This document shows, piece after piece, positions 34,331-38,707 of a DNA stretch of 64,000 bases. Each line of letters begins with the position of its first letter. Positions within the stretch are counted from its first letter, which is position 1. A program made the position numbers and the translations under genes. The notes beneath the pieces were generated by a model. The model had not been told where the DNA came from. It saw only the letters and a program-made list of their open reading frames with translations, and searched no databases. Origin of the DNA: Magnetococcales bacterium (lineage in GTDB: Bacteria > Pseudomonadota > Magnetococcia > Magnetococcales > JADFYX01); the NCBI GenBank assembly GCA_015232405.1, contig JADFZS010000012.1:276-64275 (forward strand), read 5' to 3'.

Positions 34331-34563
34331 CAGAACACTCAACCTACAAAACCAACATTGTTAATAACTTGTTTAAAATTTTAAACTAAACACAAACATG
34401 AATCCATTCATAATAATCCTAAATCAAAACCATCCAAAGCTATAAAAGAGTGATAGCACATAAAAATTTAGAATTCATCGGTGACCTTGTCAAATTTAAT
34501 CAATCTTTGCTAACCTTCATAAAATAAAATGTTATCTGCCTCTTAAATATGGGACCAGTAAAT

Positions 34564-36543
34564 ATGAGAATTCTCATAGTTATGCCAAGATTTTCCAACA
34601 GTGTGTTGCAATCATATGAGATTCCACTTGGTATTCTTTATATCTCCTCAGCATTAAAGAGTGCAGGAAAAGAAGTTCACACTCTTAACCTTAACTGTTT
34701 AGAAGGTACTGTTGAAGATGAGATTGCCAAAGCAATAAAAGAGGTTGATCCAGATGTGTGCGCTAGTGGTGGCCTTTCAGATAATTTTCAGATTGTTCAG
34801 TCCGTATTTGTAAATGCCCGTAAATATAAGCCAGAAATTATTAATATTGCTGGTGGTGGTTTGGTGAGTGCAGATCCGGAGATGGCAGCAAAACTATGTG
34901 ATTTTGACATAGGGGTTAGAGGAGAAGGAGAGCTGGCAATTGTTGAAGTTATTGATGCTTTAAGCAACAATTTGCCACTTCAAGATGTTACAGGTTTGGT
35001 TATAAAAAGAGATAAGGAGCCTCCTCTACTTACTCAAGCTAGAAAAGTCAACTTTGATATTAGCACCCTACCTTGGCCAGATTATGAAGGGTTCAATATG
35101 GACAAGTTATTGGAAATACAGATTCCACAAAACTTGTATATATTTCACCCATATGACAACCCAAGATCCATCCCAATGATAACAAGCCGTTCATGCCCAC
35201 TACAATGTACGTTCTGCTACCACCCAACTGGGCAAGTTTATAGAGAGAGAGATTTTGATGATTTTTTTGCTGAATTAGACCATCTAATTGCAACTTATAA
35301 CATCAATTTAATTTCTATTTCTGATGACCTTTTATCCCTAAAAAAAAGGCGGATGATAGAGTTTTGTGAACGCATAAAACCTTATAACCTAAAATGGGAA
35401 TGCCAGATACATGAAAAATCAGTTGATATAGAGACCCTCAATTTACTTAAAGAGGCAGGATGTTTCGCAATTAGTATCGGTATTGAAAGTATGAGTGAAC
35501 CGATATTAAATAGTATGAAAAAACGTACTTCACCAGAAAAACTGGCTAAAGCACTAAAGCTCATTTATTCCTCAGATTTACTCATTCAGGGCAATATTTT
35601 ATTGGGTGATCCAGCAGATACATTAGAAACAATAGCTGAATCCTTCAATTTTATGGTCCAACACCCTGAATATGGAATAAACTACTCTAGACTAAGAGTT
35701 CTTCCAGGTAGTGAGATTTATAAAAATGCGGAACAAAAAGGACTATTTGGGGATCAAGGTGTAGTATTTGCCAACCCAGAAATACAGGTAAATCTAACCC
35801 ATATGACCAATGAGGTGTTTAACTCATTGTGTATGCGCTTTAACTTTTATACAAAAACACTCATATATAAGGGATCTGTATTATCAATTGACTTAGAAAA
35901 AGAAGCTCATCCAATCTTTGGTAAGGGAAAAACCTGCCAATGGCTCTGTCCTAAATGCAATAAAATTAGCAAGTATGGTAGTATTTTTATAGATAAGGGT
36001 AATATTCGTCTCTCTTGTCGACACTGTTATGCTTTGGCCTATATACACATTTGGAGCTTTAACCCACCTTTAAGCAACCCTAAGGAAGATATACAGCTAG
36101 CTATTGCGCAAAAACATGAAGAGATCTATTTGCACAACAATTCAACCCAAGCAAAACAGAACGCAGCTATTGAGTATCATAAGCTACTAACAAACCACTG
36201 TTTACCGCCTAATAATACCAATAAATCTTGGGCTTGTGACAAAGCTGCTTTAAAACTAGGTCAATTTAAGCTTGAAAATGGAGAACAAGAAGAAGCAATG
36301 CAACTGATAATGTATGCATTGGAAAATAATGTCTGGAATCCTGATAGCCATGCTACTTTTGCAATAGCACTAAAAAAGGAGGGAAGTCTTGGGGCAGCTT
36401 TACTTTATTTAGATAAGGCGATAGAGCTAAGCAATGACCCACCGCAATCTTGGATCAATTCTCGCGAAGAATTGGATAGTTTGATTGATGAAAAAGGGTT
36501 AAGGAATAACAATTCAGTACTATATTTCAACTCATTTTATTGA
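34564..36543 (+). CDS. B12-binding-domain radical SAM protein with a C-terminal Zn-ribbon and TPR-like tail (paralog 1)
   Basis: The N-terminal MRILIVMPR...[10 protein letters not shown] is B12-binding-like. [11 protein letters not shown] is the CX3CX2C motif. It also has CPKC...CRHC and a helical-repeat C-terminus. The alternative start at 34549 adds 5 aa. Confidence 0.85.
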   Translation: [659 protein letters not shown]

Positions 36544-36727
36544 TTTTCATACTTTATTGACAGTAATAACTGGAAAACATTGTTCAATAAACCTTACATA
36601 TTTATTAAGAACAAATGATCCCTATAAACATAACGAGTTACAAAGGTGAACTTGTTAATTTAATGAAACTTTGTTAGTTTCTACTAGGAATAATGACCCT
36701 CGCCATTTTGATTCAGGACCAAATAAT

Positions 36728-38707
36728 ATGAGAATCCTCATAGTAATGCCACGGTATACAAACAATATTCTTAATTCATATGAGATGCCCCTTGGTATTC
36801 TATATATCTCCTCAGCACTAAAAAAAGCAGATAAAGATGTTCACACTCTCAACCTTAACTATTTAGAGGGTACTGTTGAAGAGGAAATGGCTAAAGCCAT
36901 CAAGGAAATTGATCCAGATGTCTGCGCTTGTGGTGGACTATCAGATGATTTTCATATTGTTCAAGCTGTATTTTTAAATGCTCGTAAATACAAGCCGGAT
37001 ATTATCAATATTGCGGGTGGCGGTATTGTGGGTTCAGACCCTGAGATGGCTGCCAAGCTATGTGAATTTGACATAGGAGTGATAGGTGAGGGAGAGGTTA
37101 CAATTGTAGAAATTATCGATGCCCTCAGCAACAACACGCCCCTACATGAGGTTGAAGGTTTGGTTTTGAAACAACCTGGCAAACCTTCCCTACTCACCCC
37201 AACCAGAAAAGTAAATTTTGATATCAGTTCTCTGCCTTGGCCAGATTATGAAGGGTTTAACATAAATAGGTTACTGGAGGTTCAGGTTCCGCAAAATATG
37301 TATCTGTTCAACCCATATGACGACCCAAGATCCATCCCCATGATAACAAGTCGTTCGTGTCCTCTCCAGTGTACATTCTGCTACCATCCAACTGGTCAGG
37401 TCTATCGAGAGAGGGATTTTGATGACTTCTTTGCTGAGCTGGACCATTTGATCGCTACTTATAAAATAAATTTAATTTCGATAAGTGATGATCTGTTATC
37501 CATTAAAAAAAGAAGGCTATTGGAGTTTTGCGAACGTATTAAACCATATAATTTGAAGTGGGACTGTCAAATACACGAAAAATCAGTAGATCAAGAGACC
37601 CTCAATACACTTAAGGAGGCTGGTTGTTTTGCCATTAGTATCGGTATAGAGAGTATGAGTGAACCGATTTTAAAAAGTATGAAAAAACGCACATCACCTG
37701 AAAAACTTGCTCAAGCACTAGATCTTATCTACAACTCTGACTTATTGATACAGGGAAATTTCTTGTTGGGAGATCCAGCTGACACAGTGGAAACAACAGC
37801 AGAATCTTTTGACTATTGGGCGCAACACCCTGAATATGGAATAAATTTTTTCAGACTAAAAGTTCTTCCCGGTAGCGAGATTTATAAAAATGCAGAAAAA
37901 AAAGGGCTTTTTGGTGATAAAGGGATAGTTTTTGCCAACCCAGGAATTATGGTAAATCTAACTCAAATGCCCAATGAGGTTTTTAATTCATTATGTGATC
38001 GTTTTGAATTTTACACAAAAACCTTGATCCATCAGGGCCAAGTAGTTTCCATGGGGGCAGACAAAGATCCCCATCCAATATATGGTCATGGAAGAACCTG
38101 CCAGTGGCGTTGCCCAAAATGCGATAAGATCAACGAATACGGCAGTATTTTTATAGAGGCAGACAATGTTCGTATATCATGCAGACACTGTTGGGCCAGA
38201 GCATTTTTATATATTTGGAACTTTCAACCTCCAACTAACAACCCCGAGGCCGACACTCAGCTAATTAATGCAGAAAGGCAAGAGGAGTTAAACCTACTCC
38301 ACCACTCAGCCCAAGCCAAACATAATGCCGCAGTTGAGTATCATAAACTGCTCAAAGACCACTGCGCACCACTTGAAGATAGCAACAAGCCTTGGGCTTG
38401 TATTCGAGCGGCTTTGAAACTTGGTATTTATAAGCTAGATAATAATGAACTTAATGAGGCAATGATACTATTAAAGTATGCTCTAGAAAGAAACGTATGG
38501 AACCCTGATAGCCATGCAGCTTTCGCTAGAGCGCTAACCATGGAAGGCAGTCTAGGTGCAGCATTACTTTATTATAAAAAAGCTATAGAGTTAAGCCGTG
38601 ATCCTGCTCTTTCTTGGATTAAATCAAGTGAAGAGCTAGAACGCATTATAGATGAAAAAAAGTTACGGCAAAACAAAGCAGCACTCTATTTTAACTCTTT
38701 ACGATAA
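36728..38707 (+). CDS. B12-binding-domain radical SAM protein with a C-terminal Zn-ribbon and TPR-like tail (paralog 2)
   Basis: It has exactly the same length (1980 nt) as paralog 1 and is collinear with it. I chose the ATG at 36728 to match paralog 1, since the track's TTG at 36671 lies inside a promoter-like block. Confidence 0.85.
   Translation: [659 protein letters not shown]

Follow-up and report, generated by a model that had tools for sequence, protein, structure and literature searches.

What do two adjacent, equally long radical S-adenosylmethionine (SAM) genes do in an uncultured Magnetococcales bacterium, and why are both of them kept? The genes, here called copy A and copy B, lie on a stretch of 64,000 nucleotides (GenBank assembly GCA_015232405.1, contig JADFZS010000012.1, positions 276 to 64,275), which we refer to as the window and whose first letter is position 1. 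They represent a widespread but uncharacterized subfamily of class B radical SAM enzymes that is defined by a four-cysteine (Cys4) ribbon and a short tetratricopeptide repeat (TPR) domain. From the gene neighborhoods of their relatives, we lean toward a function in glycan tailoring, probably as C-methyltransferases.

Each open reading frame (ORF) spans 1980 nucleotides, and the two start codons are spaced by 2164 bp (Table 1). BLASTP aligned the two products with 492 identities in 658 positions (75%), 87% positives, and 0 gaps. An initial annotation, made by eye from the sequence alone, had given the same lengths and period and had described the genes as collinear, free of indels, and ∼70–80% identical. 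Longer versions of both ORFs start upstream, at position 34549 (ATG) for copy A and at position 36671 (TTG) for copy B. The equal-length reading of 659 residues is right, since the MR/MK start (MRILIV...) is aligned in every homolog.

At the nucleotide level, the copies are 75.7% identical overall and 55.5% identical at third codon positions. A 38-residue stretch is the same in both proteins, whereas the underlying DNA differs at 22 of 114 nucleotides. Four methods gave 0.15–0.16 nonsynonymous substitutions (dN) and 0.8–1.8 synonymous substitutions (dS) per site, with dN/dS ratios of 0.09–0.18, i.e. not near 1. These values indicate that the duplication is old and that selection maintains both copies. 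The initial annotation, which had noticed the unchanged protein stretch above synonymous changes, had already proposed an old tandem duplication under purifying selection, and this is what the pair is, with both copies intact. When calculated by domain, the ratio (ω) is lowest in the radical SAM barrel (88% amino acid identity between the copies, ω of 0.04), compared with the B12 domain (79%, ω of 0.15) and the helical tail (63%, ω of 0.14); for the cysteine ribbon (62%), it was not computable. Positive selection on the pair was rejected, with ω ≤0.32 in every domain.

Tandem duplicates are common and often transient, and the second copy might be redundant or decaying, the pair having no meaning beyond a recent duplication. 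We find this hardly credible given a dS of 0.8–1.8 at a dN/dS of ∼0.1. Moreover, the two ORFs are intact and do not differ in length, both copies retain all family-invariant columns of an alignment of 18 family sequences (alignment A1), each copy has a conserved cis-element upstream, and paired copies recur independently in other lineages, as described below.

The initial annotation had read the proteins as a B12-binding-like N terminus, a CX3CX2C radical SAM core, a cysteine ribbon, and a TPR-like tail, and Pfam, alignment A1, profile searches, and a structural model all agree with this order. PF02310 (B12-binding) matches the two copies with 58.6 and 47.2 bits (cut-off of 32.1; residues 15–129 in copy A, E = 6.8e-16), and PF04055 (Radical_SAM) with 59.2 and 52.9 bits (cut-off of 29.5; residues 205–363). 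Invariant in A1 are the cluster motif C211-x3-C215-x2-C218, GGG (residues 97–99), and EGE (residues 121–123), as well as Trp-460, Cys-462, Cys-465, Cys-485, Cys-488, His-596, and Gly-610; a YF pair near the C terminus is almost invariant. The AlphaFold2 model of copy A, built from A1 (pLDDT of 89.3, pTM of 0.88), consists of a Rossmann-like domain of alternating strands and helices (residues 1–135), a barrel (residues ∼200–400), a β-domain (residues 436–495), and eight helices (residues 506–658). Foldseek matches this model to TsrM, AprD4, OxsB, CysS, TokK, and MgmA (E = 1e-19 to 2e-15) at 13–19% identity. The N-terminal B12-binding domain, the CX3CX2C core, and the class B-like fold, which are the three hallmarks of class B, are all present, and by sequence and model both copies are class B (B12-binding) radical SAM enzymes. 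A B12-type domain alone is no proof of cobalamin use, as AprD4 has such a domain and does not use B12; for the pair, cobalamin use is predicted.

The C-terminal part sets the family apart. In the ribbon, the Cys-462/Cys-465 and Cys-485/Cys-488 knuckles follow strands 456–461 and 480–484, which form β-hairpins both in the full model and in a model of the isolated domain (pLDDT of 82.7). A profile of the isolated cysteine domain retrieved zinc ribbons only, with weak scores (RPA12, E = 0.0013; Tim15, E = 0.0033; L33, E = 0.006). A Foldseek search of the PDB with the isolated model gave nothing at E ≤0.1, and the ribbon of NrdR aligns to it at 1.9–2.0 Å over ∼40 columns, which is not significant. 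The WxCPxC knuckle also bears a resemblance to rubredoxin. “Zinc ribbon” is the best label for the Cys4 domain because its sole profile matches are zinc ribbons, although these are weak and no PDB neighbor is significant; the zinc itself is putative.

The helical tail was identified as a TPR domain by a family profile that matches consensus TPR and OGT TPR chains (E down to 3e-31, positions ∼512–640). A HMMER search with the tail alone likewise matched generic TPR proteins over residues ∼560–635, whereas Pfam matches to a single sequence remain below threshold (TPR_14, 15 bits versus a cut-off of 23.5). Among the 1.84 billion representative proteins covered by the tail-only search, the unit of ribbon plus TPR was seen only in proteins of the same family. 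This tail is specific to the family, whose members appear in databases under generic names only.

The initial annotation had allowed for the pair belonging to a well-characterized class B subfamily. We found its NCBIfam scores to lie far below every cut-off and the matched structures to be ≤19% identical. No curated NCBIfam class B equivalog reaches its cut-off, including PhpK, HpnR, BzaD, the ladderane radical SAM model, and TIGR04295. The best scores are 125 bits for Sden_1168 (cut-off of 575), 121 bits for BchE (cut-off of 481), and 116 bits for HpnJ (cut-off of 578). Taken at face value, such top scores of 110–125 bits would suggest a phosphonate P-methyltransferase (Sden_1168, PhpK), a hopanoid enzyme (HpnJ, HpnR), or a BchE cyclase-type function. 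This is very improbable, as the scores are 4–5-fold under cut-offs of 480–600 bits, none of those families has a ribbon plus TPR tail, and the Pfam-labeled recurrent neighbors of the relatives, besides which unlabeled families remain, include no gene of such a pathway. A full-text literature search returned no study of this family, nor of B12 radical SAM enzymes in surface-glycan clusters.

Two short motifs alone retrieve at least 415 relatives from representative genomes of many phyla, and cultured carriers include Varunaivibrio, Azospirillum, Nisaea, and Nitrospira. Relatives that are full-length and carry the tail come from Magnetococcales, Rhodospirillales (Azospirillum, Varunaivibrio, and Nisaea), Betaproteobacteria (Sulfuritalea and Sideroxydans), Nitrospira, Bryobacteraceae, and Desulfobacula; those whose match ends with the ribbon (residues 1–488) extend to many more phyla and to Methanoperedens. 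Ten relatives are longer (740–1180 amino acids). Their extra tails contain no Pfam domain and thus give no Rosetta-stone fusion clue to a partner; the proteins of loci L051 (10001–13537) and L083 (10001–13549) are ∼1180 amino acids long, with ∼690 residues lacking a Pfam match after the B12-radical SAM-ribbon part. In Azospirillum oryzae and Azospirillum sp. TSO35-2 (L010 and L013, ∼1260–14660), five genes for B12-binding radical SAM proteins, belonging to different sub-types, stand together with a carbamoyltransferase gene and a radical SAM-SPASM gene, and the family member there has an extra C-terminal extension of ∼170 amino acids.

Paired copies recur across this distribution. Close paralogs, in tandem or a few kb apart, are found in Varunaivibrio (62% identical), L014 (52%), Desulfobacula (85%), Nitrospira (51%), and L033 (68%), and likewise in L039, L055/L062 (three copies), L057, L065, and L081. 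In the tree, part of these pairs group as sisters, so the duplications arose independently. The same holds for the pair in the window: the nearest relative outside the pair is ≤59% identical over its full length in a database of 5.8 billion proteins, and copies A and B are sisters in a neighbor-joining tree, indicating a duplication specific to this Magnetococcales lineage. In two other Magnetococcales genomes, nGRbin4 (L005 and L007) and nCLbin10 (L002 and L011), two copies lie dispersed, and a separate TPR-containing glycosyltransferase of the GT41 type (TPR-GT41) accompanies each. That two diverged copies have been kept repeatedly speaks for a division of labor rather than redundancy. Judged by their divergence, which is greatest in ribbon and tail (62–63% identity versus 88% in the barrel), the copies in the window are probably not redundant, and each would serve a position, step, or partner of its own within one pathway.

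To which pathway the enzymes belong is best addressed through the neighbors of their relatives. For 84 loci, we clustered the ORFs lying up to 10 kb away and labeled the recurrent families with Pfam. Recurrent neighbors are radical SAM-SPASM proteins (41 loci), NAD epimerases/dehydratases (32 loci), GT2 glycosyltransferases (26 loci), DegT aminotransferases (22 loci), transketolase/E1-β-like proteins (21 loci), NeuB and sugar C-methyltransferases (17 loci each), thiamine diphosphate (ThDP) enzymes (15 loci), E1-α-like proteins (14 loci), and HldE-like kinases/nucleotidyltransferases (12 loci). Also found repeatedly are CMP-sugar synthetases, SIS isomerases, sulfotransferases, carbamoyltransferases, methyltransferases of the TylF and FkbM types, and pairs of ABC-2 permease and ATPase. 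Of the 75 loci left once duplicate contigs had been removed, 51 have a glycan-type context, defined as ≥2 glycan-type families within 10 kb, comprising 17 of 28 with a TPR tail and 34 of 47 with a shorter tail.

The gene directly upstream is often a glycosyltransferase. A CgeB-like GT1_2 enzyme takes this place in L001 (Varunaivibrio sulfuroxidans, CP119676), L015, L017, L018, and L027 and lies nearby in L014 and L033; genomes with this upstream neighbor include Varunaivibrio, Sideroxydans, Sulfuritalea, Desulfobacula, and Nitrospira. In Magnetococcales, a TPR-GT41 gene directly precedes the radical SAM ortholog in L002, L007, L011, and L034, with a remnant in L005. The window also encodes a TPR-GT41 (Table 1), which shares 40% identity with that of L034 along its full length. 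It lies 5.3 kb upstream of the pair on the same strand, with five unrelated genes between, and from this context it is a candidate functional partner of the pair.

A cassette recurs at several loci (L001, 1035–7594; L017; L027; L014; L021/L023). It contains an HldE-like protein with reversed domain order, pyruvate dehydrogenase (PDH) E1 α/β-like proteins, a 111-amino acid protein, a radical SAM-SPASM protein, and a CgeB-like glycosyltransferase, then the B12-radical SAM gene or genes, often with sulfotransferases after them. The NCBIfam matches of its HldE-like, PDH-E1-like, NeuB/PseI-like, and SPASM proteins are all sub-threshold. Since no cassette protein reaches an NCBIfam cut-off, the whole sugar pathway looks uncharacterized.

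As the relatives reside inside nucleotide-sugar and glycan clusters, a surface sugar is favored over a peptide as the substrate. The initial annotation had regarded the substrate as unknown and had found no obvious substrate gene nearby. The latter holds, as no substrate genes adjoin the pair within the window; the former can be narrowed, by the context of the relatives, to what is probably a pathway of glycans or sugar nucleotides whose genes lie in another part of the genome. The annotation's suggestion that the TPR tail points to a protein or peptide substrate is not favored, given relatives that stand in nucleotide-sugar and glycan clusters, often right after a glycosyltransferase.

According to that suggestion, the TPR tail would capture a glycoprotein (flagellin or an S-layer protein) or the precursor of a ribosomally synthesized and post-translationally modified peptide (RiPP), a side chain of which would be methylated or cross-linked. 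We consider this quite unlikely. TPR domains commonly bind peptides or proteins, and the tail is among the most diverged parts between the copies, but the neighbors of the relatives are sugar-pathway enzymes and not RiPP peptidases, transporters, or precursors. The RiPP class B models score far below their cut-offs (TIGR03975, 81 versus 282 bits; ApyD, 76–89 versus 750 bits). The two copies share no conserved precursor-like small ORF, and the ORFs over their upstream blocks are frame-shifted relative to each other. More in favor of a protein substrate, the TPR-GT41 next to Magnetococcales relatives has the layout of FlmG, in which a TPR module recruits the protein substrate to a GT-B glycosyltransferase domain (PMC7591256), a resemblance of architecture only. 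A tblastn search with the termini of Escherichia coli FliC found flagellin at just one of 85 loci. This locus, L080 (14472–16073) of a Vallitaleaceae metagenome-assembled genome (MAG), has the flagellin gene within 5 kb of the radical SAM gene and is the sole related locus with flagellin within 10 kb.

A sugar might also be modified without methylation, by diol dehydration or deoxygenation (AprD4-like), by rearrangement (OxsB-like), or by C–C bond formation for a branched or higher-carbon sugar. AprD4, a sugar 1,2-diol dehydratase, and OxsB are among the best fold matches, and many clusters hold radical SAM-SPASM proteins and the E1/transketolase-like or ThDP enzymes typical of branched-sugar formation. 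We nevertheless regard such chemistry as unlikely for the pair: the AprD4 model of NCBIfam scores only 46–52 bits against a cut-off of 500, the B12-binding domain is above the Pfam cut-off in both copies, and most characterized class B enzymes are methylases.

Glycan tailoring by C-methylation, the function toward which we lean, would proceed as follows. SAM would be reductively cleaved at the [4Fe-4S] cluster, and the resulting 5′-deoxyadenosyl radical would take a hydrogen from an unactivated carbon of a nucleotide-activated sugar or of a sugar already attached by the neighboring glycosyltransferase. Methylcobalamin would then give its methyl group to this carbon, the mode of methyl delivery used by the class B C-methylases TokK, CysS, GenK, and Fom3. 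The ribbon may act as a structural metal-binding cap, with zinc as the probable metal, and the TPR tail may dock the enzyme on a partner protein, be it the glycosyltransferase or an acceptor or carrier of the glycan. The genes of the pathway would lie outside the window, elsewhere in the genome.

Several observations weigh against this proposal. The pair itself does not lie in a glycan cluster but is flanked by a MoxR-DUF58-DUF4381 operon and an unrelated TPR/ETF-QO/GT4/UvrB block. The link to glycans rests on relatives that are just 35–58% identical to the pair, and about a third of the related loci (including L003, L008, L012, L025, L037, and L045) are without glycan genes. Methyl transfer is unreadable from sequence, and AprD4 and OxsB are equally good structural matches.

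It is also possible, and we put this forward tentatively, that the Cys4-ribbon/TPR class B proteins as a whole form a new family of surface-glycan tailoring enzymes that combine B12-dependent radical chemistry, TPR-mediated recruitment to a neighboring glycosyltransferase or acceptor, and duplications for successive or position-specific modification. Nonulosonic-acid, heptose, or branched sugars, for example, would be C-methylated in this way. If so, surface glycans of Proteobacteria, Nitrospira, Acidobacteria, and other phyla would owe part of their diversity to B12-dependent radical C-methylation as a general mechanism. Should the enzymes indeed place radical-derived methyl groups or other modifications on cell-surface sugars, bacterial glycans would gain a new type of modification, orphan mass shifts in glycan analyses would be explained, and the fusion of a TPR docking module to a radical enzyme would have a defined example. 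Few groups of enzymes contain as much unassigned chemistry as the class B radical SAM enzymes. For the window itself, the outcome is a clean annotation and a hypothesis that is testable in cultured relatives rather than a new kind of system; as uncharacterized class B enzymes and tandem duplicates are common, the pair is unsurprising in kind.

Each copy is preceded by a conserved non-coding block (Table 1). The two blocks are identical at 27 of 33 positions (82%) with one 1-nucleotide indel, whereas the non-coding DNA flanking them is 38–39% identical between the copies; the binomial probability of this conservation is ∼6e-7 for a block picked after the fact. Conservation at a dS near or above 1 points to constraint. 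Because the indel changes the reading frame, the conservation is at the DNA level and not coding, and small peptide genes over the block (ORFs 34450–34527 and 36615–36677) were rejected for their frame shift between the copies. The block is a conserved cis-element, one at each copy, for which a promoter is only one possible reading. Of the ∼36-bp promoter-like block in the initial annotation, the conservation and the spacing of 83–84 nucleotides to each ATG are borne out (over 33 nucleotides), but the promoter hexamers are not: TTGTCA-18-TAACCT and TTGTTA-17-TAGTTT fail a scan for the σ70 consensus, with −10 candidates that match TATAAT at 3 of 6 positions. The TTGTCA...GCTAAC of the block is, we assume, loosely similar to the alphaproteobacterial housekeeping promoter consensus, which is a lead and not a test. 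A site for another σ factor or a regulator is possible. The core motif occurs only at these two sites in the 64-kb window, and the block was not found upstream of orthologs. There is no intrinsic terminator between copies A and B, and independent promoters for the two copies are plausible from the sequence. A riboswitch or other RNA element was rejected, as Rfam gave no match at the gathering score in the whole window or at E ≤1 in the leaders, and so was a stable leader RNA fold, the leaders being no more stable than shuffled sequences (z of +1.7 and +0.2).

A perfect 16-nucleotide palindrome, TATGAGAATTCTCATA, covers the start codon of copy A (34563–34578) and recurs at copy B (36727–36742) with one central mismatch. 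It is missing from the orthologs in L005 and L034 and may represent a site for a regulator, a hairpin at the start codon, or a coincidence of codon choice.

Table 1. Positions of the gene pair, its domains, and selected neighboring features in the window
Feature	Position	Strand	Basis or remark
Copy A, class B (B12-binding) radical SAM enzyme, 659 amino acids	34564–36543	+	ORF, Pfam, AlphaFold, Foldseek
Copy A, B12-binding Rossmann-like domain, residues 1–135	34564–34968	+	PF02310, model, invariant GGG/EGE
Copy A, CX3CX2C (C211, C215, C218), radical SAM [4Fe-4S] site	35194–35217	+	invariant, within PF04055 match
Copy A, four-cysteine β-ribbon, residues 456–495 (W460-x-C462-P-K-C465 ... C485-R-H-C488)	35929–36048	+	invariant residues, models
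Copy A, helical TPR tail, residues 506–658, eight helices	36079–36537	+	TPR profiles, model
Copy B, paralog of copy A, 659 amino acids, equal four-part architecture	36728–38707	+	ORF, BLASTP, alignment
Copy B, CX3CX2C	37358–37381	+	
Copy B, ribbon	38093–38212	+	
Copy B, TPR tail	38243–38701	+	
Conserved non-coding block upstream of copy A	34480–34512	+	84 nucleotides before ATG; candidate promoter/operator
Conserved non-coding block upstream of copy B	36645–36676	+	83 nucleotides before ATG
TPR + GT41-type glycosyltransferase	27209–29269	+	Pfam TPR families and PF13844
MoxR AAA+	31874–32845		operon with DUF58 and DUF4381
DUF58	32842–33810		operon member
DUF4381	33821–34330		last gene of operon, 233 nucleotides before the radical SAM pair

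The MoxR-DUF58-DUF4381 operon ends without the vWA/Bat-type genes that, we presume, usually come next. The remaining window is ordinary chromosome, with hemC, tsaD, gpsA, a gyrB/parE-type gene, an efflux system, and cyclic-nucleotide signaling genes. UvrB (44415–46454) is 87–89% identical to its counterparts in uncultured Magnetococcales MAGs and 64–65% identical to those of Magnetococcus marinus and M. massalia. In the MAG nwag_bin5, the block UvrB-GT4-ETF:QO-TPR12-196aa is syntenic with the window (50–87% identity), and LanC-like, HopA1, and APH genes stand after it where the window has the radical SAM pair (L084). The single close homolog in nwag_bin5 (56% identical) is on another contig, directly after a TPR-GT41 gene and beside a NeuB-like gene (L034). 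The syntenic block followed by different genes in this related MAG places the pair at a synteny breakpoint. A G+C fraction of 0.353–0.373 across positions 34001–38000, compared with about 0.39–0.42 in most of the window, hints weakly at acquisition or relocation of the segment.

The gene downstream of the pair (38747–39340, minus strand) encodes a 197-amino acid protein without a Pfam match that is 44–50% identical in two related MAGs without the pair; given its synteny there with the neighboring TPR_12 gene, it has no relation to the pair. A gene of the phage-integrase family (53239–54078) is 91% identical to its syntenic counterpart in a related MAG (L085) and is probably a conserved chromosomal recombinase, not a marker of a mobile element. 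Cyclic-nucleotide genes are concentrated in the window and encode a small protein that binds cyclic nucleoside monophosphates (cNMP; 12540–12992), an 889-amino acid cNMP-binding and metallo-β-lactamase protein (20612–23281), and a GAF-GAF-PAS-adenylate/guanylate cyclase-TPR protein (24890–27181).

Among known systems, FlmG (PMC7591256) resembles the TPR-GT41 of Magnetococcales in its combination of TPR and glycosyltransferase, a likeness of architecture only. FlmG is a glycosyltransferase and not a radical enzyme, and flagellin genes are not linked to the radical SAM family. Closer in fold are TsrM (PDB codes 6wte/6wtf), TokK (PDB code 7kdx), CysS (PDB code 9n1b), and MgmA (PDB code 9ccb), which likewise possess an N-terminal B12 Rossmann domain and a CX3CX2C barrel; they are 13–19% identical to the pair, and all lack the Cys4 ribbon and TPR tail. 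They act on tryptophan, on carbapenem or pantetheinyl intermediates, or on a protein glutamine, and to our knowledge none of the four is encoded in a cell-surface glycan cluster. AprD4 (PDB code 6fd2), the radical SAM 1,2-diol dehydratase of apramycin biosynthesis, is an equally good fold match (E = 4e-18, target TM score of 0.68). Its substrate is a sugar, as proposed for the pair, whereas it is only ∼450 amino acids long, has neither ribbon nor TPR tail, and belongs to an antibiotic pathway. Characterized class B enzymes are mostly found in antibiotic, cofactor, lipid, and RiPP pathways, and those that C-methylate sugars, GenK, GenD1, and Fom3, stem from secondary-metabolite (antibiotic) clusters of actinomycetes. 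Compared by general description only, these three have the chemistry proposed for the pair, in which a 5′-deoxyadenosyl radical and methylcobalamin act at an unactivated carbon of a sugar or sugar nucleotide.

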